A stretch of DNA of 64,000 bases from Parcubacteria group bacterium GW2011_GWA2_51_10 (GTDB taxonomy: Bacteria > Patescibacteriota > Minisyncoccia > Phycocordibacterales > UBA2100): positions 5,371-69,370 of the forward strand of contig LCQS01000005.1 in NCBI GenBank assembly GCA_001004265.1, read 5' to 3'. Numbering within the stretch: position 1 is the stretch's first letter; each line of letters opens with the position of its first letter. The translations under genes were made by a program, and so were the position numbers. The notes under the pieces are model-generated. The model was not told the origin of the DNA. It was given only the letters and a program-made list of their open reading frames with translations, and ran no database searches. Below are positions 4,362 through 63,144 of this stretch, piece by piece.

Positions 4362-5111
4362 ATGAGAATTATTATCAATGGACTTGCAACGGAGTACCTC
4401 GATGAGGGAAGGGGAAAAACGCTTCTGCTGCTACATGGTTGGCAGGATAATTTGCACACGTTCGACAAACTCGCCGCTAAACTTGCAGAAAAATATCGCG
4501 TCGTCAGGTTAGATTTGCCGGGATTTGGCGAGACTGAAACTCCGCGAAGAGCGTGGAATCTTGAAGACTACGCAGAATTCATCTCTGCGTTCTGTCGGAA
4601 ACTGGGCATACAGGTGTTCTGCATCATTGGGCACTCGCTCGGAGGCCGCATCTCGATCAAATCACTTTCAGGCTCGATTCTGAATACTGAAAAGCTGGTA
4701 CTCATCGCGTCGGCAGGCGTCGCGAAACGCAATCCAGTTCGCTCTGGAGCGCTTCTTGCTCTTGCGAGAATCGGAAACGCTGCTTTTTCTATTCCGCCCT
4801 TGCGTAACTTGAAAGGAAGCGTGCGCCGCTCATTTTATAAGGCGATTGGGAGCGATTACGAAGCGGCAGGGAAGCTGCGCGGGACGTTTCAAAATATCAT
4901 ACGAGAAGATCTGTCCGATGCCGCCAAAAAAATTGCTGCGCCCACCCTCTTGATATGGGGCCATCTAGACAGAGAAACGCCGCTTTTCGACGGTCAAAGA
5001 CTTTCAAATCTTATTCGCGGTTCAAGAATCGAAATCGTGGAGGGAGCGGGGCATTTCGTGCATCGGGAGCGTACGGGGCGAGTAGCTGATCTGATATTAC
5101 ATTTCCTATGA
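4362..5111 (+). CDS. alpha/beta-fold hydrolase
   Basis: MRIIINGLATEYLDEGRGKTLLLLHGW, a nucleophile elbow GHSLGG, and a C-terminal GAGHFVH. The ATG at 4362 follows the nth stop directly. Confidence 0.8.
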   Translation: MRIIINGLATEYLDEGRGKTLLLLHGWQDNLHTFDKLAAKLAEKYRVVRLDLPGFGETETPRRAWNLEDYAEFISAFCRKLGIQVFCIIGHSLGGRISIKSLSGSILNTEKLVLIASAGVAKRNPVRSGALLALARIGNAAFSIPPLRNLKGSVRRSFYKAIGSDYEAAGKLRGTFQNIIREDLSDAAKKIAAPTLLIWGHLDRETPLFDGQRLSNLIRGSRIEIVEGAGHFVHRERTGRVADLILHFL

Positions 5112-6532
5112 GCATTCAGAGTTTTTTGTCTCTCTATCGTCCGCGATACATACGCTCGCTCATCTACATGCTGCAGACAAGCGAGTACGATGTGGGCGAC
5201 TTTACGGCCTGGTATTTGCGGACGCGGGATTTCAGCAGTGTCGAGCGCAGAAGAAAAATTGCGTGGACGCCGAAGGCAACTCTTTTCGCTGTTGCGCTGT
5301 GGGCGCTTGTCGGCATCGTCGCTTATATTCTTCTTACGTTCCTGTTTCTCGGAGGGGCCTTCCTTGTACTTCTCGCTCCCATACTTCTTTTACTGCCCTT
5401 TGTGCTCGCTGTTGCTCTCGCGGGGTTCGCTATTCTTTTCGCCGGCGTCCAGTCGATAGTCGAGCAATTCTATATGCGTCGTGCCGCTCTACGACTTTCG
5501 CGGATGAAAGCGTTTAAGATCGCGATCGCCGGGAGCTTCGGAAAAACCACCATGCGCGAGATTCTTAAAGCTGTGCTTGCCGAAAGCAAGCGCGTGGCCG
5601 CGCCTCCCCACAGCTACAACACGCCACTCTCAATTTCTCGTTTCGTCGGCTCTCTCAAAGGCGATGAGGAGGTTCTAATTTTTGAGCTCGGCGAATATTA
5701 CCCGGGGGACGTGCGCAAGCTTTGCGAAATGATTAAGCCCGATCTTGGTATTGTTACAGGAGTGAACGAAGCGCATTTAGAGAAATTTGGTGACTTGGAG
5801 GAAACCGCCGAAACGATTTTCGAGCTTGCCGATTATTTGAATGACAAGCCGTTATACGTAAATGGCGAAAGCGAGATGGCGTGGAAGCATGCGCCGGAGC
5901 ATGCAATCATATATTCATGCGCAGGATCGGGTGATTGGAAAGCAGCACATACAAAGACCGATCTTAGCGGGCTTTCTTTTTCGTTTCAAAGAGAGGGCGA
6001 GGATATCGCTGTTCGGTCGAAGCTTCTCGGCGTTCACAATGTGGGTCCACTGTCCGCAGCGATTCACGTGGCAAAAAGATTGGGACTTCCGAATACGGCC
6101 ATCGAGGCGGGACTTTCTAAAACGAAGGCGTTCGAGCACAGAATGCAGGCGCGCGCGGAAGGCGGCATCGTGATCATAGATGACAGCTACAATGGAAATC
6201 CGGACGGTGCCCGCGCGGCCATAACATTTTTAGCTGGTCTCTCGGCAAAGCGACGCTTTTACATAACGCCCGGATTTGTTGAAATGGGTGCGAGAAGCGA
6301 AGTGGTCCATAGAGAGTTAGGACGCGAGCTTGCTCTATCCGGGATCGAACACATTGTACTTATTCAAAACAGCGTAACAGGACATATCGAGAGCGGTTTA
6401 GCGGGAGCGAATTACCACGGCAAAATTCTCCACTTTCCTGATATGCCGCAGGCGCTTTCAGCCCTAAAGCACGTGACGACTCCGGGTGATGTAGTGCTTA
6501 TTCAGAACGACTGGCCGGACCAGTATGCCTGA
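5108..6532 (+). CDS. Mur ligase family protein (MurF-like) with an N-terminal transmembrane region
   Basis: P-loop IAIAGSFGKTTMREIL, then DDSYNGNPDGARAAI (MurF-type DxSYNANP-like). Residues ~55-115 are two strongly hydrophobic helices where the usual N-terminal domain would be. Confidence 0.75.
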   Translation: MSIQSFLSLYRPRYIRSLIYMLQTSEYDVGDFTAWYLRTRDFSSVERRRKIAWTPKATLFAVALWALVGIVAYILLTFLFLGGAFLVLLAPILLLLPFVLAVALAGFAILFAGVQSIVEQFYMRRAALRLSRMKAFKIAIAGSFGKTTMREILKAVLAESKRVAAPPHSYNTPLSISRFVGSLKGDEEVLIFELGEYYPGDVRKLCEMIKPDLGIVTGVNEAHLEKFGDLEETAETIFELADYLNDKPLYVNGESEMAWKHAPEHAIIYSCAGSGDWKAAHTKTDLSGLSFSFQREGEDIAVRSKLLGVHNVGPLSAAIHVAKRLGLPNTAIEAGLSKTKAFEHRMQARAEGGIVIIDDSYNGNPDGARAAITFLAGLSAKRRFYITPGFVEMGARSEVVHRELGRELALSGIEHIVLIQNSVTGHIESGLAGANYHGKILHFPDMPQALSALKHVTTPGDVVLIQNDWPDQYA

Positions 6533-7572: not shown

Positions 7573-8730
7573 ATGAGAAACGTGGCAGTTATTTTTGGAG
7601 GGCGGAGCGCGGAGCATGATGTCTCCATCATTACGGCTCACATTCCGGTTATCGAAACGCTCCTTGCAGGCCGGAAATACGATGTCGTTCCGATATACAT
7701 CTCAAGAGCGGGTGTCTGGTATTCGGACTCGGCGATGAACAACCTCGAATATTTTAAAGAAGACTTTGAGCCGAAGCTGCGGAGATTAAAGCCCCTCCAA
7801 TTGTCATTTGAGAAGGGCCTCGAGATCATTGAGCCGGGTATATTCGGAAAAAAGAAGAAAATCGACATCGTATTTCCAACCATGCATGGTACGTATGGCG
7901 AAGATGGGAGTTTGCCGGGACTCTTGCGCATGGCGAACGTGCCATTTGTCGGATGCGATCTTTCCGCCTCGGCAGTTGCGATGGATAAGGCATTCACGAA
8001 GCAAATTCTTTCGGCTGAAGGGATCCTTGTCGTGCCGTTTGTTTGGTTCACCAAGAGTGAGTGGGAAGCAGATAATAAAAGGATATTAGAGCAAATTGCA
8101 CGCCTCAAATCGCCGCGATTCGTAAAACCTGTGCACCTCGGCTCCTCAATTGCGATTACGAAAGTGAAAAGTGAAGCTGAACTTGTGAATGCCATAGAAG
8201 TCGCGCTTCACTACGACGATAAGGCGCTCGTTGAGGAGAGCGTCGAGGACTTGATAGAAGTGACGTTGCCTATTATAGGAAACAATGAGCCTCGTGCGGC
8301 AGAAGTCGAGCATGCTCTCAATAAAACGGAAGTTTTTGATTTTAACGAAAAGTATCTCTCTGGAGGAAAGAAATCAGTCGGCGGAGTCAATAGGGCGTAC
8401 AGCGAGATCCCCGCGAACATTGGCGAGGAGGTGACATCCAAGGTGAAAGAGATGGGCAAGCAAGTATATCGAATTCTTGGCTGTACAGGCATTGCACGTG
8501 TAGATTTTCTGATTGACGGAAAAACGAAGAAGATTTTCGTAAATGAAGTGAATACGCTTCCCGGAAGTCTCTATCATCATAATTGGCGAAAAGCGGGCGT
8601 ATCGAACATGGAGCTCATCGAGGAATTGATTCGGCTCGCGGAAGAGAGGTTCGCCTCACAAAAAAATACGACTTTTACATTTAAGTCCGACATTCTGAAG
8701 AAAGTAGGAGGACCGAAGATCGGAGCATGA
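7573..8730 (+). CDS. ddl: D-alanine--D-alanine ligase
   Basis: MRNVAVIFGGRSAEHDVSIITA, HGTYGEDGSLPGLL and ARVDFLID...FVNEVNTLPG. Start moved from 7507 to the conserved MRNVAVIFGG. Confidence 0.9.
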   Translation: MRNVAVIFGGRSAEHDVSIITAHIPVIETLLAGRKYDVVPIYISRAGVWYSDSAMNNLEYFKEDFEPKLRRLKPLQLSFEKGLEIIEPGIFGKKKKIDIVFPTMHGTYGEDGSLPGLLRMANVPFVGCDLSASAVAMDKAFTKQILSAEGILVVPFVWFTKSEWEADNKRILEQIARLKSPRFVKPVHLGSSIAITKVKSEAELVNAIEVALHYDDKALVEESVEDLIEVTLPIIGNNEPRAAEVEHALNKTEVFDFNEKYLSGGKKSVGGVNRAYSEIPANIGEEVTSKVKEMGKQVYRILGCTGIARVDFLIDGKTKKIFVNEVNTLPGSLYHHNWRKAGVSNMELIEELIRLAEERFASQKNTTFTFKSDILKKVGGPKIGA

Positions 8731-8847
8731 CCCCGTTAGAAACCGCGGTCGCGAATACATGATCGAGTCTTAGCAAAACGGCCAACATAAAAAGCATGAC
8801 CAAAATATTAGCCAGCATCGTGCGAGCGCGACCTGTTTCTAACAGGG
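8731..8847 (+). repeat. family B hairpin element (copy 2), starting directly after the ddl stop
   Basis: ccccgttagaaaccgcggtcgcg (8731-8753) pairs with cgcgacctgtttctaacaggg (8827-8847). The first arm begins 1 nt after the TGA at 8728-8730. Confidence 0.6.
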
Positions 8848-9545
8848 TGACGAAAGCAGCAAAGCAAAGGGTGGCGGTATTTGATGTAGATGGAACGATT
8901 TTCCGCTCAAGTCTTTTGATACAGCTCGTCAATAAACTCATTGAAAAAGGTGCGATACCGAAAGACGCCGAGCTCGTGTATGATCGCGCTCACATTCGTT
9001 GGCTCGATCGCGAGGGCGATTATCAGGAATACATTGAAGCGGTTATCAAAGCATTTCGCGCACACCTCAAGGGACTGCATTACGGCGTTCTCGCGGATGC
9101 TGCGGAGGAATTAGTCGAGGAGCAGTGGAAGCGAACATATCGTTACGCTCGTGATTTGCTGAAGGATTTAAAATCGAAGGGATACTACCTTCTTGCCGTC
9201 TCGCATTCTCCCAAAACGGTTCTCGATAAATTCTGTCCGCGACTCGGATTCGACAAGGCGTATGGCATCGTCTACGAAATCGGCCCGCAGGAGTGCTTCA
9301 CGGGCGCCGTCGTAGAGGAGCATCTCATCTACAATAAGGCGAACATTCTGAAGCGCGCGATTGAAAAAGAGAATCTGACAATAAAAAATTCTGTAGGTGT
9401 CGGCGATACTGAATCGGACATTTCGTTTCTCGAAATGGTCGCGCAGCCCATCTGCTTCAATCCCAATTCAAAGCTCTACCGGTATGCTAAACGAATGGGC
9501 TGGAAGGTAGTAGTTGAAAGAAAGGACGTAGTTTATGAACTGTAA
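8796..9545 (+). CDS. HAD-IB family hydrolase (phosphoserine-phosphatase-like)
   Basis: VAVFDVDGTIFRSSL (motif I) and GVGDTESDISFLEMV (motif IV). The ATG at 8796 lies in the loop of the family B hairpin. An in-frame GTG at 8847, at the hairpin end, is an alternative start. Confidence 0.75.
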   Translation: MTKILASIVRARPVSNRVTKAAKQRVAVFDVDGTIFRSSLLIQLVNKLIEKGAIPKDAELVYDRAHIRWLDREGDYQEYIEAVIKAFRAHLKGLHYGVLADAAEELVEEQWKRTYRYARDLLKDLKSKGYYLLAVSHSPKTVLDKFCPRLGFDKAYGIVYEIGPQECFTGAVVEEHLIYNKANILKRAIEKENLTIKNSVGVGDTESDISFLEMVAQPICFNPNSKLYRYAKRMGWKVVVERKDVVYEL

Positions 9546-15322: not shown

Positions 15323-16984
15323 ATGGCTAAGCAAGTAATTTTTGATCAAGAAGTTCGCAGCGCCCTCAAGCGCGGCGTCGATGTCGTCGCAGGGGCTGTC
15401 AAAGTGACGCTCGGGCCTCGCGGCCGCAATGTTGCACTCGATCGCTCATGGGGCGGCCCGACGATCACCAACGACGGCGTCACGATTGCAAAAGAAATCA
15501 CGCTTGCCGACAAGTTCGAGAACATGGGCGCGGGCATCGTGAAGGAAGTCGCGTCGAAAACGAATGACAAGGCAGGCGACGGAACGACGACCGCAGTGGT
15601 GCTTACGCAGGCGATAGTGCATGAAGGGCTAAAGCGAACCGCAATGGGCGCGAACGCGATGGTGGTGCGGCACGGAATCGAGGCGGCGGCAAAGGACGCA
15701 GTGGAAGCGCTCAAGAATATGGCACGACCGGTTTCTGGCAAGAACGATATTCGTCAGGTTGCGACGATTTCTGCAGAATCTGAAGAGCTTGGAAAAACGA
15801 TTGCTGACACTGTCGAGCGCGTCGGCAAGGACGGTGTCGTCACGGTGGAAGAATCGCAATCGCTCGGCATCGAATCCGATTTCGTAGACGGCATGGAATT
15901 CGATAAGGGATATGTCTCGGCATATATGGTAACGAATGCCGAGCGCATGGAGTCCGAAGCGAAAGATACGCCGATTTTGATTACAGACAAAAAAATCTCT
16001 ACAGTCAAGGAAATCTTGCCGCTTCTTGAAAAGCTCGCGCAGTCGGGCAAAAAGGATTTGGTGATTATTGCCGATGATGTGGACGGCGAGGCGCTCGCGA
16101 CGTTTGTTGTAAATAAAATCCGCGGCATTTTTTCCGTTCTCGCGGTAAAAGCTCCAGGCTATGGCGATCGCAAGAAAGAGATGCTGCAGGATATTGCAAT
16201 TACGGTCGGCGGACAGGTGATTTCCGAAGATCTCGGAATCAAGATGGAAAATGCAGAACTTTCTATGCTCGGCCGCGCCCAGCGTGTCGTTGCAACGAAA
16301 GACTCCACGGTCATTGTCGGAGGAAAAGGCAAAAAGGCGGATATCGGAGCGCGCGTCTCTCAATTGCGAAAGCAATTGGAAAGCACGGATTCGAAGTTCG
16401 ATAAGGAGAAAATCGAAGAGCGTATCGCGAAACTTACCGGCGGTGTGGCTGTCATTCGCGTTGGTGCGGCGACGGAGACGGAAATGAAATATCTCAAGGA
16501 CAAAATCGAAGATGCGGTAAATGCGACGAAGGCGGCGATAGCCGAGGGCATCGTTCCCGGCGGAGGAGCTGCTCTCGCGAAAGTCGCAGCGAAGCTCGAG
16601 AAAAAAGTAAACGCCAAAGCGCACGATGAATACACCATTGGATATCGCATTCTGCTTTCCGCGCTTTCGGCACCGCTTCTGCAGATCGTCAAGAATGCGG
16701 GGCGCGACGACGGCGCAGTTATATTGCAGGAAGTCGTGAAAAAGGGCGGGAATTTCGGATTTAACGCGGCAATAGAATCGGCCTCCGATGGGGAGAGCAA
16801 CGTCGTGGATATGTTTGAAGCGGGAATCATCGATCCGGTGAAGGTGACCCGAAGCTGCGTTGAGAACGCGGCGTCCGCCGCGGCGGTTTTGATTACGACC
16901 GAAGCGGCGGTTGCCGATGCTCCTGAAGAAAAGAAAGCCGCTATGCCCGGCGGCATGGGCGGAGGGATGGGGGACATGGAGTAG
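15323..16984 (+). CDS. groEL: chaperonin GroEL
   Basis: AKQVIFDQEVRSALKRGVD, GPRGRNV, GDGTTTAVVL, and a C-terminal GGMGGGMGDME tail. Confidence 0.97.
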   Translation: MAKQVIFDQEVRSALKRGVDVVAGAVKVTLGPRGRNVALDRSWGGPTITNDGVTIAKEITLADKFENMGAGIVKEVASKTNDKAGDGTTTAVVLTQAIVHEGLKRTAMGANAMVVRHGIEAAAKDAVEALKNMARPVSGKNDIRQVATISAESEELGKTIADTVERVGKDGVVTVEESQSLGIESDFVDGMEFDKGYVSAYMVTNAERMESEAKDTPILITDKKISTVKEILPLLEKLAQSGKKDLVIIADDVDGEALATFVVNKIRGIFSVLAVKAPGYGDRKKEMLQDIAITVGGQVISEDLGIKMENAELSMLGRAQRVVATKDSTVIVGGKGKKADIGARVSQLRKQLESTDSKFDKEKIEERIAKLTGGVAVIRVGAATETEMKYLKDKIEDAVNATKAAIAEGIVPGGGAALAKVAAKLEKKVNAKAHDEYTIGYRILLSALSAPLLQIVKNAGRDDGAVILQEVVKKGGNFGFNAAIESASDGESNVVDMFEAGIIDPVKVTRSCVENAASAAAVLITTEAAVADAPEEKKAAMPGGMGGGMGDME

Positions 16985-16991
16985 CGCTCGC

Positions 16992-17088
16992 GTCCCGGCA
17001 CCTTCTTGCCGTCGCTGTCTGCCTCTGCTGAGGCAGCGCTGCCTCTCGCGCCGTCGCGCTGCGAGACACGGCAAGAAGGTGCCGTGCC
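16992..17088 (+). repeat. three-way-junction structured repeat (family A, copy 1)
   Basis: P1 is ggcaccttcttgccgt / acggcaagaaggtgcc (16 bp, perfect). P2 is ctgcctc-TGCT-gaggcag. P3 is ctctc-gcgc-cgtc-gcgc-tgc-gagac. CGCTCGC direct repeats flank it (16985-91, 17089-95). Confidence 0.75.
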
Positions 17089-17155
17089 CGCTCGCTGATA
17101 TTGGGAGAAAAGGCAAGCGCTCGGGATGAGCGAGCGCTTTTCATGCGGGCTGTGG

Positions 17156-17407
17156 TCAGACGCGCCAGCGACTGTCCGGCGGAACTTCTGCGGCGGCATT
17201 GAAGAATGTTACGTATGCGTCCCTGGCAAGCTGTTCCGCGGCTCTTTTGCTGCCTGGAGCCGTAAACTCGCCGCTCACCCATACGTAGAGATCGCGGATC
17301 GCGTGGCCCTTTCCTAGAAAGGCTCGGCGCAGCTCGTCAATGGTATCTCCCTCTAAGTCGATAATTTCGATGTCGTGCGGCGGATCAAGCAAGGCTATTG
17401 AACGCAT
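17156..17407 (-). CDS. hypothetical protein (83 aa)
   Basis: A strong SD (AAGGAGG) lies 4 nt upstream of the ATG at 17407 (MRSIALLDPPHDIEIIDLEG...). No family recognised. The upstream extension to 17482 lacks an SD. Confidence 0.5.
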   Translation of the reverse strand: MRSIALLDPPHDIEIIDLEGDTIDELRRAFLGKGHAIRDLYVWVSGEFTAPGSKRAAEQLARDAYVTFFNAAAEVPPDSRWRV

Positions 17408-17482
17408 GTTGCCTCCTTTTTGGCAGCTGCGATTATAACCTGGACTTTTCGGTTGTGGCAAAGGTGTTATAATTTTGTGCAT

Positions 17483-18106
17483 ATGGAATCCGTTGTTATT
17501 GGCGTTCTCATTATTATCCTCATCGCGAGCGCGCTTTTTGATGTTATCAGCTGGTCGTTTAATGCGGTTGCAATACTTGCATTGGTGATTGCGTGGGCGA
17601 TCATCATGTACAACAGGCTCATTCGGCTCACGAATCGCTCCGAGGAGGCGTGGTCAGATATAGACGTGCAACTGAAGCGCCGCTACGATCTTATTCCGAA
17701 TCTCGTGAATACAGTGAAAGGCTATGTTACTCATGAACGGGGAACTCTCGATAGCGTCACAGAAGCGCGAACGCGCGCGATGAACGCGCAAACAGTCGAA
17801 CAGCATGCGCAAGCGGAAAATATGCTGACGGGCGCACTGAAGACTCTGTTTGCGGTTGCAGAGAATTATCCGAATCTGAAGGCGAATGAGAATTTCGTTG
17901 AGCTCCAGCGGGAACTTTCGGATACGGAAAATAAAATCCAGGCGGCACGTCGCTTCTACAACGGCGTTGTTCAGGAACTCCAAAACGCGCTCGAAATGTT
18001 CCCGTCGAATATCGTGGGAAATATGTTCGGCTTTAAGACGCGCGAATTCTTTCAATTGAGCGAGGCGGAAGGCGCAGCTCGCGAGCCGGTAAAGGTCAGT
18101 TTCTAA
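17483..18106 (+). CDS. LemA family protein
   Basis: An N-terminal TM helix, then MYNRLIRLTNRSEEAWSDIDVQLKRRYDLIPNLV...ENYPNLKANENF..LQ.EL..TENKI..AR..YN. Confidence 0.85.
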   Translation: MESVVIGVLIIILIASALFDVISWSFNAVAILALVIAWAIIMYNRLIRLTNRSEEAWSDIDVQLKRRYDLIPNLVNTVKGYVTHERGTLDSVTEARTRAMNAQTVEQHAQAENMLTGALKTLFAVAENYPNLKANENFVELQRELSDTENKIQAARRFYNGVVQELQNALEMFPSNIVGNMFGFKTREFFQLSEAEGAAREPVKVSF

Positions 18107-19537: not shown

Positions 19538-19598
19538 ATGTGCCCAGCCGTAGTTTTGTCGAAATTTTGATAGCGCAAAACTACGTCCGGGTGTGCAT
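19538..19598 (+). repeat. hairpin repeat family C, copy 1
   Basis: aTGTGCCCAGCCGTAgttttg...caaaacTACGtCCgGGTGTGCAt. The conserved base is shared with 63087-63144, and the apical stem is different but still complementary. Confidence 0.5.
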
Positions 19599-22915: not shown

Positions 22916-25199
22916 ATGTCCTTTAGTAACTTATTTTTCATGCGCATGACGAATCAAACGGAAAGCGTTAAGAGAGGAAGAGGGCCTGCCCTCGCACGGG
23001 CGGGAGCGGTTGTCGTTTCAGCGACTGCCGCGTTCCGCGTGTATAAAAAATATTTACCGAACATCCAGAAGCGCGACGGTCGGATCGTCCCATTCGAGTT
23101 TGAAAAGATCGGGCACGCTATTCATAAGGCGATGGTCGCGACGAATGAGGGCTCGAGTGATGAGGCGGTGGTCGTCGCGCACAAAGTGGCTGGGGAGATG
23201 ATGCGCATTGCCAAGACGTATAAGAATTTTTTGCCGACTGTCGAGGGATGCCAGGACGAAGTAGAGCGCCAACTCATCCTTTCCGACTACGCGGCGGCCG
23301 CAAAGGCGTACATTCTCTATCGCGCGGATCGCGCGAAACTTCGCAAGGAGCAGGGCGATGTTCCCGAGCACGTCCGCGCGTTGGCGCAGGAGAGCAAAAA
23401 ATACTTCAAAAATAATCCGCTCGGAGAATTTGTGTACTTGCGTACATATGCGCGGTGGATCGAGAGCGAACAGCGCCGAGAGACGTGGGTGGAAACCGTT
23501 GATCGGTACATCGGCTTTATGAAAGAAAATCTCGGAAACAAATTGAAGCCGCGCGAGTATGCGGAATTGCGCGAGGCGATACTCAAGCAGGAAGTGATGC
23601 CGAGCATGCGCGCGATGCAGTTTTCGGGAGATGCGGCTCGCAAGTGCAACACGTGTTTTTACAATTGCTCATTTACCGCGCCAGTGAAGTTGGAAGATTT
23701 TGCGGAGATCATGTATCTCTCGATGCAGGGATGTGGCGTTGGATTTGCGGTTGAGAGCCAGAATGTGCAACAGTTGCCGCAGATTCAAAAGCAAACTGGC
23801 GAAAAATTGGCGACGCACGTTGTCGCAGATTCAAAAGAGGGATGGTGTGATGCCCTCACGCTGGGTCTCAAGGCGTGGTATTCGGGGAAAGATCTAGATT
23901 TCGATTTCTCTCTCATCCGCCCGGCAGGATCGCGCTTAAAGACGATGGGAGGGAAAGCTTCTGGTCCAGAGCCGCTTCGTTCTCTTTTGGGATTTGCACG
24001 GGATCGCATTTTGAAGCGGCAGGGAAGGCGGCTGCGCAATATTGATGCTCACGACGTCATCTGCAAAATCGGAGAGTGCGTTGTTGCCGGCGGCGTGCGC
24101 CGCACGGCAATGATATCGCTTTCGGATCTGGACGATGTTGAGTTGCGGGATGCCAAAAAAGGCCAGTTTTTCCTTACGGATCCGTTTCGCTCTGTCGCGA
24201 ATAACTCGGCAGTCTACGAGACGAAGCCGACGAATGCTGAGCTTATGGACGAATGGGTCGCCCTTATGAAAAGCGGCACGGGAGAGCGCGGCATTTTCAA
24301 CCGCGGCTCGCTGGAGAAAACGCTTCCGGAGCGCCGCCTCAAATTTTTCAAAAAGAAATTCGGAAAGAAGAAAGGAAATTTCATCGGGCAGGTGGGCACT
24401 AACCCGTGCGGCGAAATTTTGCTTCAATCTCATGAATTTTGCAATTTGTCGGAGGTAATTGCTCGCGCGGAGGACACGGAAAAAACGCTCCTGCGGAAAG
24501 CGAAACTTGCGACGCTCCTCGGTACATACCAATCCACGCTAACGAAATTCAATTACATCTCGAAGGAATGGCAGGAGAACTGCGAACAAGAACGTCTCCT
24601 CGGCGTCTCCATTACGGGTCAGTGGGACTCTCCCGCTGTGCGTGATGCGAAGGTGTTGCGGAGGATGAATTCACACGCGGCACTCGCAATACTACATCCG
24701 GCGCGTCCGCATTTCGGCGACGGACTCGCTTTATAGAATGGTGCGCGACCAAGGCATCCCGACTCTACCGGAGGTGGGGCAGAATGCGAACGAGGCAAAC
24801 ACATTCGTGCTCGAGTTTCCCGTTAAAGCTCCCCAAGGATCAATTTTCAAAAACGACCTCTCTGCGATCGAGCAGCTCGAATATTGGAAAACGGTAAAAC
24901 TGAATTTCACAGAGCACAATCCCTCCGCGACGATCTCTGTCGGGGAAGAGGAGTGGGTGGCAGTCGTTGCGTGGATCTCGGAAAACTGGGATATCATCGG
25001 CGGTCTCTCGTTCCTTCCTCGCGAAAGCCACGTGTATCGCCTCGCACCGTATGAAGCCATCGATAAAAAAACATACGAGGCTCTCATGAAAAGATTCCCA
25101 CAGATAGATTACTCGAAACTCGTGATCTACGAGCGCACGGATGAGACGGAGCAGGCGAAGGAGTTGGCGTGCGCGGGCGGGACGTGCGAGATAGTTTAG
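22916..25199 (+). pseudogene. nrdJ: class II (adenosylcobalamin-dependent) ribonucleotide reductase with an ATP-cone, interrupted near 24666
   Basis: ATP-cone NIQKRDGRIVPFEFEKI, active site TNPCGEILLQSHEFCNLSEV, and C-terminal redox pair ELACAGGTCEIV. The frame changes at ~24666: frame 0 opens after the TGA at 24666-68 and encodes IHTRHSQYYIRRVRISATDSLYRMVRDQGIP. Confidence 0.85.
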
Positions 25200-25203
25200 C
25201 GCC

Positions 25204-25302
25204 CGAGATATCATGCTCTTCGGGTCGCTGTCTGCGCGTGCTCGCGCAGCGCTCACTCTCGGGCCGCCGCCCTGCGAGAGACCCTCATAGCACGATACCT
25301 CT
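25204..25302 (+). repeat. three-way-junction structured repeat (family A, copy 2)
   Basis: Core ggGTCGCTGTCTGCGCGTGCTCGCGCAGCGCTCACTCTCGGGCCGCCGCCCTGCGAGAGACCc. The outer stem gagatatcatgctcttcgggtc / gaccctcatagcacgatacctc is imperfect. It starts ~5 nt after the nrdJ TAG. Confidence 0.7.
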
Positions 25303-25515
25303 CGCTTGCTGTTGTTTTAAGAATCAACATCCTGCTGCGTTTGCCTTGCTCGTCAAGCATATGCCGCAAAAGAGTTTCGCAAAAGAGAATGGTGGTTGGA
25401 AAAAAGAGAAAGCCCGGAGAAATTCCCGCAGCTTCATCTTTCCGACAGCCGAACGTATATCTTGTGTCATTTTCTCTCCTTCGAGAATGTTGTTCCGGGG
25501 CTAATATGCTACACA

Positions 25516-25544
25516 TTGACGGTAGTGTCAATGATTGGTAAGAT
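25516..25544 (+). promoter_or_regulatory. candidate promoter of rnpB
   Basis: TTGACG (25516-21), a 17-nt spacer, then TAAGAT (25539-44). The predicted P1 5' strand starts 7 nt downstream. Confidence 0.45.
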
Positions 25545-25550
25545 ACATGC

Positions 25551-25984
25551 CTGCGTTAGGCAGTCGCCGATATTGCCTGCCGCAGGCAGTTGCAATATCG
25601 AGCGTCCCGAGCGAAGTCGAGGGACTGCCCTTCGATAAACTCAGGGCTCTCGATTCTGCAGCCACCTGCGGCGGGCATAATCGGAGGAAAGTCCGGACAT
25701 AGCCAGCATTTAATGTTGGAGCATGGTAGTGGGTAATACCCATCCACAGTGATGCGAGAGGTGCGAGCAGTGACGCCGACTCCGAAAGGAGAAGGATTCC
25801 TTCGGGAATAATCGTATCGAGAGATACGGGTGAAACGGCAAAATCCTTACCGCTATGCAAGGTCGCGTCCAGCCGCAGTTTTATTCAATTGATAAAACTA
25901 CAGCTGGAAGAACCGCTTGAGGTGAATGGCAACATTCATCCCAGATAAATGGCTGCCCTCGACAGAATCCGGCTTATTGCGCAG
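25551..25984 (+). ncRNA. rnpB: RNase P RNA, bacterial type A, with a greatly expanded P3
   Basis: P1 ctgcg...cgcag; P2 aggcagtcgcc; CR-I GGAGGAAAGTCCGGAC (25683-98); CR-V-like ACAGAATCCGGCTTAT (25962-77). P3 is gcctgccgcagg (25575-86) / cctgcggcgggc (25665-76) and encloses ~78 nt. Confidence 0.9.
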
Positions 25985-25996
25985 TGCAGGCGAGCA

Positions 25997-26025
25997 AAGC
26001 AAACGAGCTTTGCTCGTTTGCTTTT
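25997..26025 (+). terminator. intrinsic terminator after rnpB
   Basis: aagcaaacgagc-ttt-gctcgtttgctt followed by TT. A second hairpin (aaagagatgc...gcgtctcttt + tct) lies ~60 nt downstream. Confidence 0.65.
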
Positions 26026-26200
26026 GAGCCAAACAAGCAAAACGAGCGAAGCGAGTACAACGCAGAAATGAAAAGAGATGCTCTAAAGGCGTCTCTTTTC
26101 TACATTATCTGGGCTAGTTTTTCCACATTGGCGATAATAGAATATGCTACACTGGCTGGGTTATCTGTAAACAACTCTTTTTAAGAGGCATGTTTGTATC

Positions 26201-34867: not shown

Positions 34868-34907
34868 ATGTGCGTGCCATGCTGATCGGTGTGGCGATAA
34901 CGCATCG

Positions 34908-34930
34908 GCCGACTCTTTGAGTCGGCTTTT
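34908..34930. terminator. bidirectional intrinsic terminator
   Basis: gccgactc-ttt-gagtcggc followed by TTTT on the plus strand. It lies between convergent genes. Confidence 0.7.
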
Positions 34931-35513: not shown

Positions 35514-35521
35514 ATCGCTCG

Positions 35522-35620
35522 CAGGCACGTATTTTTTTGCGGTCGCTGTCTGCGCATGCTTGCGCAGCGCTCACTCTCGGCCCGTCGGCCTGCGAGAGAC
35601 CGCAAAAAAATACGTGCCTG
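35522..35620 (+). repeat. three-way-junction structured repeat (family A, copy 3)
   Basis: P1 is caggcacgtatttttttgcggtc / gaccgcaaaaaaatacgtgcctg (23 bp, perfect). P2 is ctgcgca-TGCT-tgcgcag. P3 is ctctc-ggcc-cgtc-ggcc-tgc-gagag. TCGCTC direct repeats flank it (35515-20, 35622-27). Confidence 0.8.
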
Positions 35621-35693
35621 TTCGCTCAGAGTAGATTTTTTTGATAGATTTTTATGCGAAGCAGGCGGGTTCGTCCGCCAAAGCTTCAACACA

Positions 35694-48969: not shown

Positions 48970-49189
48970 GCCAGTTTTCTTAGCGAGCAAAGCGAGCTGT
49001 AGAAAACTGAGCACCCAGCTCTACTTTTGCCTCTGATAAATCCCCGGAACGCGTGGCCGAATAGGCCGACCCTTGTCGGGCGAAGCGTTCCGAAGTTCGC
49101 ATGCGCACTGTACTCTGCATGTCCACATAGTATCGCATACCCATGCAAAAGTAGGGCTGGGTATATCTATTTCACAAGACCAATGACCT

Positions 49190-63086: not shown

Positions 63087-63144
63087 CTGTGCCCAGCCGT
63101 AATGTGCCAACTTTTGATTGGCACATTACGGCTAGGTGTGCACA
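63087..63144 (+). repeat. hairpin repeat family C, copy 2 (perfect 16-bp apical inverted repeat)
   Basis: cTGTGCCCAGCCGTAatgtgccaa-cttttga-ttggcacatTACGgCTaGGTGTGCAca. It lies between the divergent galU and DUF378 genes. Confidence 0.55.

Follow-up and report, generated by a model that had tools for sequence, protein, structure and literature searches.

A palindromic repeat family with a near-invariant three-way-junction apex in Parcubacteria-type bacteria

Three copies behind groEL, nrdJ and an ftsB-like gene

The 64-kb window analyzed here (64,000 nt of contig LCQS01000005.1 of Parcubacteria group bacterium GW2011_GWA2_51_10) contains three copies of a palindromic repeat, the Family A element, which stand directly behind groEL, nrdJ and an ftsB-like gene. 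The element is about 100–115 nt long and consists of a stem of 19–21 bp (sometimes 26–30 bp) under a near-invariant three-way junction of 59 nt. The genomes of bacteria of the Candidate Phyla Radiation (CPR; Patescibacteria) measure about 1 Mb and have little DNA to spare, and very few non-coding elements have been described in them.

A covariance model trained on 107 family members (R1) gives exactly three strong matches in the window, all on the minus strand, at 16987–17093 (copy 1; 101.1 bits), 25200–25306 (copy 2; 94.2 bits) and 35518–35624 (copy 3; 112.2 bits), with E-values of 1e-25 to 1e-30 and a next-best window score of at most 31 bits. These are the places named by the original prediction, an earlier reading of the window that had also proposed a shared core and a complementary outer stem (P1). 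The core is borne out by two motifs, GTCGCTGTCTGC and GCAGCGCTNNCTCTCG, each with three perfect occurrences in the window (exact search, zero mismatches), and the three copies align across its 59 nt; the flanking arms are unrelated between copies, yet self-complementary. The minimum-free-energy fold of the window copies is a three-way junction atop a long stem on either strand.

In copy 1, which scores 20.8 bits on the plus strand, the core occupies 17011–17069 and the P1 arms occupy 16996–17010 and 17070–17084. The stem is prolonged by the core pairs G17011–C17069 and T17012–A17068, and a perfect 17-nt inverted repeat joins 16996–17012 with 17068–17084. The P2 hairpin lies at about 17017–17039 and P3 at about 17041–17067, and the fold energy is −74.5 kcal/mol on the minus strand vs −65.4 kcal/mol on the plus strand. 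The core of copy 2 (10.7 bits on the plus strand) is at 25224–25282, between P1 arms at 25204–25223 and 25283–25302; this stem is imperfect, with two A·C mismatches on the plus strand (G·U on the minus strand) and a 4 × 4 internal loop beside the core, and its fold energy is −58.4 kcal/mol on the minus strand vs −47.1 kcal/mol on the plus strand. The core of copy 3 is at 35542–35600 and its P1 arms are at 35522–35541 and 35601–35620, in a 26-nt inverted repeat (35522–35547 with 35595–35620) that is 96% complementary; the proposed complementarity of P1 is confirmed.

The plus-strand groEL gene (15323–16984), whose product is 100% identical to GroEL of Parcubacteria group bacterium GW2011_GWA2_51_10 and places the window in a Kaiserbacteria-like CPR genome, ends in a stop codon (TAG 16982–16984) that abuts copy 1, and P1 starts 11 nt past it. 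In the other copies, P1 starts 4 nt past the stop codon of the 3′ open reading frame (ORF) of nrdJ (TAG 25197–25199) and 8 nt past that of the ftsB-like gene (TAA 35511–35513). Facing groEL is a convergent minus-strand gene of 84 codons (about 17156–17407) with a promoter-like site at 17461–17432; it is served by an intrinsic terminator (hairpin plus U-run; minus strand, 17139–17105) that lies immediately upstream of copy 1 on the minus strand.

Two further observations concern the surroundings of copy 2. The nrdJ gene of the window is made up of two adjacent ORFs in different frames (22916–24736 and 24738–25199) and its ortholog at locus L056 is a single ORF of 810 codons; the split could reflect a frameshift, a sequencing error or recoding. 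The region of about 900 nt downstream of the copy (25303–26200) has neither an ORF of more than 110 codons nor an Rfam match, and a strong promoter-like site on the minus strand (25531–25503) is aimed at copy 2. Either an RNA gene that escaped annotation or decayed DNA could lie there.

A family folded on one strand

Family A is almost confined to Parcubacteria-type CPR genomes and groundwater metagenomes. Among bacterial and archaeal genomes taken at one per species, an exact pattern of 21 specified bases from the 5′ half of the core finds 69 loci, 68 of which are labeled Kaiserbacteria, Paceibacterota, Nomurabacteria, Parcubacteria, Minisyncoccia, Patescibacteria or "uncultured Saccharibacteria." The last label is doubtful for at least some loci (L048 is plainly orthologous to a Parcubacteria contig, L057), and an Acidobacteriota locus (L049) was rejected as a chance match within a coding region. 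A pattern from the 3′ half of the core finds more than 117 metagenome loci, mostly from groundwater, and the sample totals at least 190 copies, about 118 of them with distinct stems. Searched against 519 kb of genome loci, R1 adds 11 copies that are more diverged; family matches score 80–116 bits, and the counts suggest a density of roughly one copy per 20–50 kb. Viral contigs gave zero pattern matches, and a phage origin was rejected on that ground.

Comparison with Rfam assigns the element to no known family. At gathering thresholds only four tRNAs are found across the window, no family of ribozymes (hammerhead, twister, twister-sister, pistol, hatchet, HDV) reaches its threshold, and a search at E-values up to 10 around copies 1 and 3 yields noise of at most 21 bits, far under the thresholds. 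No description of the element was found in the literature on structured RNAs, repeats and termination in CPR bacteria, and Family A is previously undescribed. It provides CPR genome biology with a new handle, a repeat common to Kaiserbacteria-, Nomurabacteria- and Paceibacteria-type lineages that is better conserved than the proteins beside its copies. R1 can serve for masking in gene calling, for flagging inserts of 33–38 residues in CPR proteins and as a lineage marker in metagenomes.

The original prediction had seen compensatory changes in P2 and P3 as well as in P1 and had proposed selection on a fold, a view that would have failed if further copies had lost the three pairings. In an almost gap-free alignment of 64 sequences, 89.8% of cells are paired, vs 64.9% after shuffling and 28–47% when the partner is slid, figures that are not probabilities, as the sequences are kin. 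Both sides have changed in 31 of the 40 pairs, among them 21 of the 22 that make up the stem, the distal three in P2 and again in P3, and the junction-closing pair (G-C in 43 sequences and C-G in 20). The compensatory changes are therefore real, and covariation extends to all three helices; in diverged members, the upper P2 helix covaries too.

Conservation is concentrated at the apex. The most stubbornly kept parts are UCGCAG/CGAG (the internal loop of P3), AGCGCU...AGAYAGCGAC (P2) and the ANCA loop, and the core stays GC-rich within AT-rich genomes. The stem has a tight length distribution (mode, 19–21 bp; second mode, 26–27 bp) and a nearly free sequence with only a weak consensus (GGGCATATGC..TTTTTGSS). 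A guide function of the stem arm was rejected, as no arm matches elsewhere in its own locus (up to two mismatches in 16 nt). In 31 orthologous pairs (same upstream gene), which display the compensation directly, the core is 78–98% identical as compensatory changes rewrite the stem, and the outer arm falls to chance once the host proteins are less than about 85% identical. The nrdJ gene at L056 is trailed by an orthologous counterpart of copy 2 with a different stem, and the FtsB-like genes at L069, L178, L165, L053 and L033 are trailed by counterparts of copy 3; FtsB-like hosts with merely 36–54% identity still bear the element. The copies are retained by vertical inheritance, under strong constraint to fold on one strand.

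As for individual variants, a copy at L024 (about 5400–5560) carries an 82-nt insertion within P3, and copies at L027 (966–1087) and L029 (3026–3146) have a common 16-nt extension of the P3 tip, GTCTGGGGTCGGCAGAC.

The strand that folds is evident from the mismatches. Among 118 unique copies, isolated mismatches between Watson–Crick pairs comprise 70 G·U vs 11 A·C when read on one strand (p of about 1e-11), and the others on that strand are mostly purine·purine; read on the window plus strand, they become 70 A·C vs 11 G·U, with the remainder mostly pyrimidine·pyrimidine. In 101 of 107 copies the former strand (hereafter the fold strand) folds more stably, the mean difference being 7 kcal/mol under RNA parameters and 3.3 kcal/mol under DNA parameters. 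Its bulges and junction residues are purines (A28′, A30′, A74′, A52′, G25′), one C·A turns into G·U on it, and the asymmetry is present in every gene context. The asymmetry of mismatches and stability thus indicates that selection acts on the fold of the window minus strand, which is antisense to all three host genes (groEL, nrdJ and ftsB-like), and the earlier remark that the A:C mismatches of copy 2 would be U:G on the minus strand extends to the whole family. Mutational bias was rejected as the source: the window plus strand has a positive GC skew, from which it is judged that the usual replication and transcription biases would run in the opposite direction.

This combination of a free stem, an invariant branched apex and selection on one strand is unusual, and it predicts a specific binding protein or enzyme.

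Gene contexts, flanking motifs and occupied sites

Gene contexts were derived from ORF heuristics, by which 100 unique copies include 29 flanked by convergent genes, 10 flanked by divergent genes and, among those with co-directional neighbors, 20 that are antisense and 11 that are sense. The 3′ side of the fold strand is pressed to a gene boundary, usually the stop codon of the convergent gene: an ORF on the same strand (in the sense of the window plus strand) stops 20–40 nt before the core in 28 of 67 copies, and the mirror arrangement occurs in 5 of 58. On the other side of the element, at least 20–50 nt are left free, often with the intrinsic terminator of the neighbor or the promoter of the next gene. 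An intrinsic terminator is found upstream on the fold strand in 18 of 101 copies (vs about 10 of 101 controls), and a canonical plus-strand terminator further downstream in only 9 of 101. The upstream genes are ordinary housekeeping genes (rpoC, gyrA, rpoD, rnc, rpmE, rplB, glmS, ndk and others).

Copies also lie outside this arrangement. The divergent class includes a widely conserved copy in the dnaA–rpmH spacer, upstream of both promoters and near DnaA boxes. In one clade, a start codon follows the stem by 12–13 nt without a Shine–Dalgarno sequence, as before rpsH (L023) and before an ABC permease gene; the copy before rpsH and another between ABC transporter genes (L051) have the orientation opposite to that of the window copies. 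The targeting of stop-codon-proximal sites suggested for the window copies is not general.

The main idea of the original prediction was that a plus-strand hairpin in the 3′ untranslated region (3′-UTR) ends or stabilizes the mRNA of the upstream gene. The excess of ORF stops shortly before the core, the rarity of canonical terminators further downstream and the frequent position of the next gene's promoter directly after the element are all in keeping with it. However, the plus-strand fold is the disfavored one, with A·C and pyrimidine mismatches and lower stability in 101 of 107 copies, and a stabilizer has no need of an invariant 59-nt apex. The hairpin-plus-U-run structure of an intrinsic terminator is lacking at the window copies: no T-run follows P1 on either strand of the three copies, and a terminator scan makes no call there, although canonical terminators are detected elsewhere in the window (e.g., 34907–34927 and 17139–17105). 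In addition, copies in operons (L023, L051) have the opposite orientation, others lie between divergent promoters or in ORFs, and four groEL orthologs manage without the element. A dedicated stabilizer or terminator on the plus strand is accordingly improbable.

Searches for a regular relation to promoters, replication or transcription were negative. No promoter stands at a fixed distance, and −10-like hexamers upstream on the fold strand lack positional clustering; a promoter belonging to the element was rejected, and the T-rich, G-poor 5′ flank is partly the U-run of neighboring terminators. Orientation tied to replication was rejected, as copies a few kb apart are co-oriented in five loci and opposed in six (the three window copies all share one orientation), and orientation tied to transcription was rejected because the 20 antisense vs 11 sense copies of co-directional pairs, the only informative ones, do not differ significantly.

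Two promoter-related motifs were observed in these genomes. In L012, L023, L036 and L051 (both copies), a conserved clade-specific motif, TATGACGCGAAGCGACC, is found on the fold strand at a distance of 20–35 nt before the element. In these genomes, sense-oriented copies immediately precede the start codons of genes such as rpsH and the ABC permease gene; the sequence is possibly a promoter or else a small motif of another kind. Extended −10 boxes (TGNTATAAT/TATAGT) stand 6–8 nt before ATG codons in the window (17460–17485), before lemA (L187, L188, L189) and before rpmH (L026, 4150–4178), which suggests from the spacing in the sequence that many genes of these organisms may be transcribed as leaderless mRNAs.

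The stem bases carry short motifs. On the 5′ side of the fold strand, copy 1 is directly preceded by AGCGAGCG (minus strand; CGCTCGCT on the plus strand, 17089–17096), with the plus-strand counterparts TCTCGCT near 25299–25305 (copy 2) and TTCGCTC at 35621–35627 (copy 3). On its 3′ side, right after the groEL stop codon, is GCGAGCG (CGCTCGC on the plus strand, 16985–16991), with counterparts TCGCTCG at 35515–35521 (copy 3) and the degenerate CGCCCG at 25200–25205 (copy 2). CTCG occurs at both stem bases, as direct repeats, in 45 of 98 unique copies vs 0–2 of 98 in control windows, so the direct repeats that had been noted at copies 1 and 3 are real and family-wide; the suggestion that they are simple target-site duplications is not supported, as AGCGAA occurs a single time, as host sequence, in the empty metK gene (below) and the junctions there show no duplication. 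The motif is not over-represented in the window, and a general genomic word of the uptake-sequence type was rejected.

The stop-codon-proximal position recalls the attC sites of integrons, which fold on the bottom strand after cassette ORFs. The selection of the fold on the strand complementary to the upstream ORF and the bulged bases on that strand also fit a site of this kind or another site-specific recombination site. However, the inverse core sites (RYYYAAC/GTTRRRY) that mark the stem base of attC are absent, the flanks are direct (CTCG...CTCG) and not inverted, conservation is at the apex, which in attC is variable, and not at the stem base, and the neighbors are housekeeping genes, not cassettes, with further copies in ORFs. 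This reading is already largely refuted by anatomy and is scarcely credible.

Intact copies also occur in-frame inside genes, namely those for DnaE (L065, L074), TsaD (L114, L129), peptide deformylase Def (L055, L146), MetK (L185), a class I tRNA synthetase (L132) and an RluA-type pseudouridine synthase (L171). In these ORFs, where copies are detectable only if the frame is open, the fold strand is always the sense strand and one reading frame is used, giving the peptide G[VL]SQADGPR[GV]SAA..ADSDP; a copy at the 5′ end of carB is in a different frame (L029, L038). Pfam confirms the host identities, with 33–42 extra residues or a split domain at the insert site. The in-ORF copies score 93–112 bits and are as intact as intergenic copies, and orthologous in-gene copies show compensatory stem changes.

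These sense copies weigh on the suggestion that the fold strand is a self-cleaving ribozyme, an RNase target or a factor-dependent terminator that insulates genes from antisense transcription or read-through. A compact three-way junction with near-invariant junction and bulge nucleotides, a constant stem of about two helical turns and a location between the terminator of the convergent gene and the stop codon of the next gene would suit such a role. Cleavage or termination would nevertheless be harmful in the essential mRNAs (dnaE, metK, def, tsaD and tRNA synthetase) and before the operon starts where intact copies are found; a good deal of the conservation lies at paired positions, and no ribozyme match appeared in Rfam around copies 1 and 3 even at the relaxed E-value. 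A ribozyme or processing role is therefore very unlikely. Also improbable is that the 59-nt junction is the handle of an undescribed CPR-specific machinery, either that of a single-strand mobile element recognized by its apex or one by which an insert of about 100 nt is spliced or excised by a protein from RNA; removal at the RNA level, if true, would explain why intact sense copies are tolerated in the dnaE, metK, def, tsaD and tRNA synthetase mRNAs.

The clearest empty site is in metK, the one site of Family A so mapped. MetK homologs fall into two length classes (about 354 vs about 388–395 residues), and their alignment has a clean gap in P0124, P0128, P0134, P0135 and P0143, which are up to 92% identical to the insert-bearing P0121; the insert-bearing and insert-free alleles are clean and testable. 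The DNA alignment reveals a 111-nt insert in L185, directly 5′ of which on the fold strand is AGCGAAGCGAA, already present in the empty gene (L193). The presence of AGCGAAGCGAA in the uninserted gene indicates that the flank motif at metK and at the window copies is a host target sequence; AGCGA(A/G)-type host sequence stands 5′ of the insert on the fold strand at the mapped site and at all three window copies. Derivation of the stem arms from target DNA, hinted at by the carB and tsaD junctions, was rejected in general because the metK insert contains both arms, with only the last 5 bp or so of the stem pairing with host AGCGAA. Orthologous gene ends were also compared at groEL, where four other Kaiserbacteria-like loci are without the element: nothing stands at L188, a 3′ remnant at L187, a plain terminator hairpin at L190 and a hairpin with other contents at L189. 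Sequence comparison shows that the family came to its sites by insertion.

At L192 (735–838, in the gene of P0125) and in P0123 and P0127, this metK site is filled by a different, distantly related hairpin element, which is found elsewhere at L029 (1682–1785) and L018 (2717–2808). It scores 19–53 bits with R1 (19 bits at the metK site), and a GAAAATTTTC-ANCA-GAAAATTTTC hairpin replaces P2. In metK it is in-frame, encodes the peptide ERTLGRSDGDGQRKFSTENFRGES, and even genes with 97.1% identity differ in whether they have it; the metK gene at L194 has a Family A copy (92 bits) followed by an arm remnant of this element.

Several other hairpins were observed. Behind groEL at L189 (about 4655–4800), flanks like those of Family A (GACGCTCG...CTCGCTGGAGG) and a stem of 19–20 bp enclose about 75 nt of AT-rich sequence that bears no resemblance to the core, followed by a second fragment of 3′ arm plus flank; by their sequence, stem and flanks look like a common "chassis" that may carry exchangeable contents. 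In the window, a long hairpin between dcd and a CYTH-like gene (48975–49165; arms 49013–49030 and 49145–49162, with 114 nt between them) has the inner stem motif of Family A (CTTTTGC/GCAAAAG), an unrelated interior and a tandem AGCGAGC AA AGCGAGC before it on the plus strand, and may be a sister element with the same target motif. A second repeat family (2099–2168 and 8730–8848) has arms of the form (A/C)CCCGTTAGAAA...TTTCTAACGG(G/C) and differing interiors, and lies at gene starts with ATG on both sides (ATGAATCCCGTTAGAAATAGC...GATTTCTAACGGCATGAAAAAAG); its arm sequence recurs in another CPR genome near a Family A copy (L066). Two short, similar hairpins with CCCAGCCGTA...TACGGCTGGG-like arms (19543–19591 and 63092–63136) possibly form a third small family.

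A proposed palindromic insertion element and its relatives in kind

With a probability of roughly 45%, Family A is a non-autonomous palindromic insertion element of Parcubacteria-type CPR bacteria, comparable in kind to the Rickettsia palindromic elements (RPE) and to repetitive extragenic palindromes (REP) and their doublets (REPIN). Among the candidates put forward originally, the evidence favors this one, which had been described as an element of the REP or miniature inverted-repeat transposable element (MITE) type. The sites taken by insertion are intergenic positions flush to stop or start codons, the dnaA–rpmH spacer, in-frame positions in at least six conserved enzymes and the 5′ end of carB. 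From the conservation of the apex, the unique stems, the few decayed copies and the constraint on one strand even in coding sequence, we infer a trans-acting protein that reads the folded strand. The folded single strand would be the ligand of this conserved protein, which would recognize the apex by its bulged purines and probably act at the CGAG-type motifs of the stem base; the most economical partner would be an enzyme for mobilizing or maintaining the family, in the way that REPINs depend on RAYT and IS200/IS605 derivatives on TnpA. Each window copy would then be a tolerated insertion, with a stop codon on one side and an AGCGAG-type site on the other. Transcripts of groEL, nrdJ and the ftsB-like gene would necessarily contain the copies, as antisense of the fold strand, at their 3′ ends, and any effect on these mRNAs would be secondary.

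Several observations weigh against an insertion element. No mobilizing enzyme was found in the 8–15 kb loci or in the 64-kb window, a genome-wide search not having been made, and no stem is common to two non-orthologous copies, so that nothing points to recent copying of whole elements; copies within one genome (the window, L051, and the MFLP01 and CAYIJQ loci) have unrelated stems. Most copies are intact, few are decayed, and orthologous copies are conserved far past neutral expectation, a pattern that suits a host function better than selfish DNA. Conservation falls on the apex and not on the termini, unlike in every transposon family known to us. Neither a clean target-site duplication nor a precise excision footprint was seen, and in a pair of empty and occupied metK genes with 97% identity, about 15 nt differ at the junction.

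The main rival is a domesticated host module, in which the fold strand is a structured RNA bound by a conserved CPR protein (a multi-copy ribonucleoprotein platform) and acts without cutting on transcripts or neighboring genes. It accounts for purifying selection on individual copies with compensatory evolution across deep divergence, for the RNA-like signs on the fold strand (tolerance of G·U, purine·purine mismatches, bulged A residues and unpaired junction purines), and for the maintenance of a GC-rich core in AT-rich genomes. The conserved positions upstream of dnaA by DnaA boxes, after ftsB and after nrdJ, and the start codons placed, with no Shine–Dalgarno sequence, 12–13 nt past the stem in several operons, also point in this direction. 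It is at odds, however, with the lack of a promoter at a fixed distance and with the 20 antisense vs 11 sense copies of co-directional pairs, by which many copies would be transcribed only via read-through or divergent transcription; an intrinsic terminator is often located just upstream on the fold strand (as for window copy 1), and placement within DnaE, MetK or Def is hard to explain functionally. On balance, such a module is possible but doubtful.

The proposed insertion element has partial counterparts among known repeats. The transcribed bacterial MITEs Correia, ERIC and BOX are, like Family A, small non-coding repeats near gene ends, with some inside genes; they form long RNA hairpins on co-transcription and are able to alter mRNA fate. 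In contrast to Family A, they have conserved terminal inverted repeats and target-site duplications. Every Family A copy has an inverted repeat of 19–30 bp, but the sequences differ and only GGGCATATGC..TTTTTGSS is common to them. We know of no transcribed MITE with an invariant three-way-junction apex or with deep covariation on one strand.

Family A resembles IS200/IS605 elements in its strand-specific fold, in the short host sequence that adjoins the insert without obvious duplication (AGCGAA at metK, the one mapped site) and in a similar short motif at the far end (CGAG), which gives apparent direct repeats. The elements of that group have separate left and right subterminal hairpins and ends that are identical among copies, whereas Family A is a single long hairpin with a three-way junction and unique stems, and its ends amount to a motif of 4–6 nt in about half of the copies; neighboring copies are not co-oriented and show no bias to the direction of replication. 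No Y1 transposase or TnpB was seen in the 8–15 kb loci and the 64-kb window that were covered. Insertion beside an AGCGAG-type sequence on a defined strand would recall IS200/IS605-type chemistry by analogy, which is only a lead, as the architecture differs.

REP/REPIN sequences are likewise hairpin repeats with tens to hundreds of copies, extragenic and vertically inherited over long times; their presumed active form is a single-stranded hairpin recognized by a single enzyme in trans, and compensatory changes are known in the variable paired region of REPINs (PMC3116915). In REPINs, the ends are conserved (REP 16–25-mers) and the middle is free, whereas in Family A the central 59 nt are conserved; REPIN copies in one genome are near-identical, whereas the stems of Family A all differ; and REPINs are described as extragenic, whereas Family A is intact in ORFs too. 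Within the loci and window covered, no RAYT gene is connected with Family A. Thus, neither conserved end sequences arranged as an inverted doublet nor confinement to extragenic sites, both typical of REP, is found in Family A.

The closest likeness is to RPE, palindromic repeats that are present in-frame in many genes (Ogata et al., 2000; reviewed in PMC10969869). Both are palindromic repeats of about 100–150 bp without a transposase of their own in a host-dependent bacterial lineage with reduced genomes, and both occur in intergenic regions and in-frame in unrelated housekeeping genes, always with the same conserved peptide; in Family A, this pattern comprises six enzyme families and the 5′ end of carB. 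The two are likened by behavior; they differ in host phylum and GC content, and sequence homology between them is not expected. Family A differs further in its branched, near-invariant apex on a nearly free stem, and in that its orthologs are under structural, strand-asymmetric constraint across genera and families and not just within one genus. Family A thereby adds a second, independent case beside Rickettsia of palindromic DNA in the essential proteins of a symbiont with a reduced genome.

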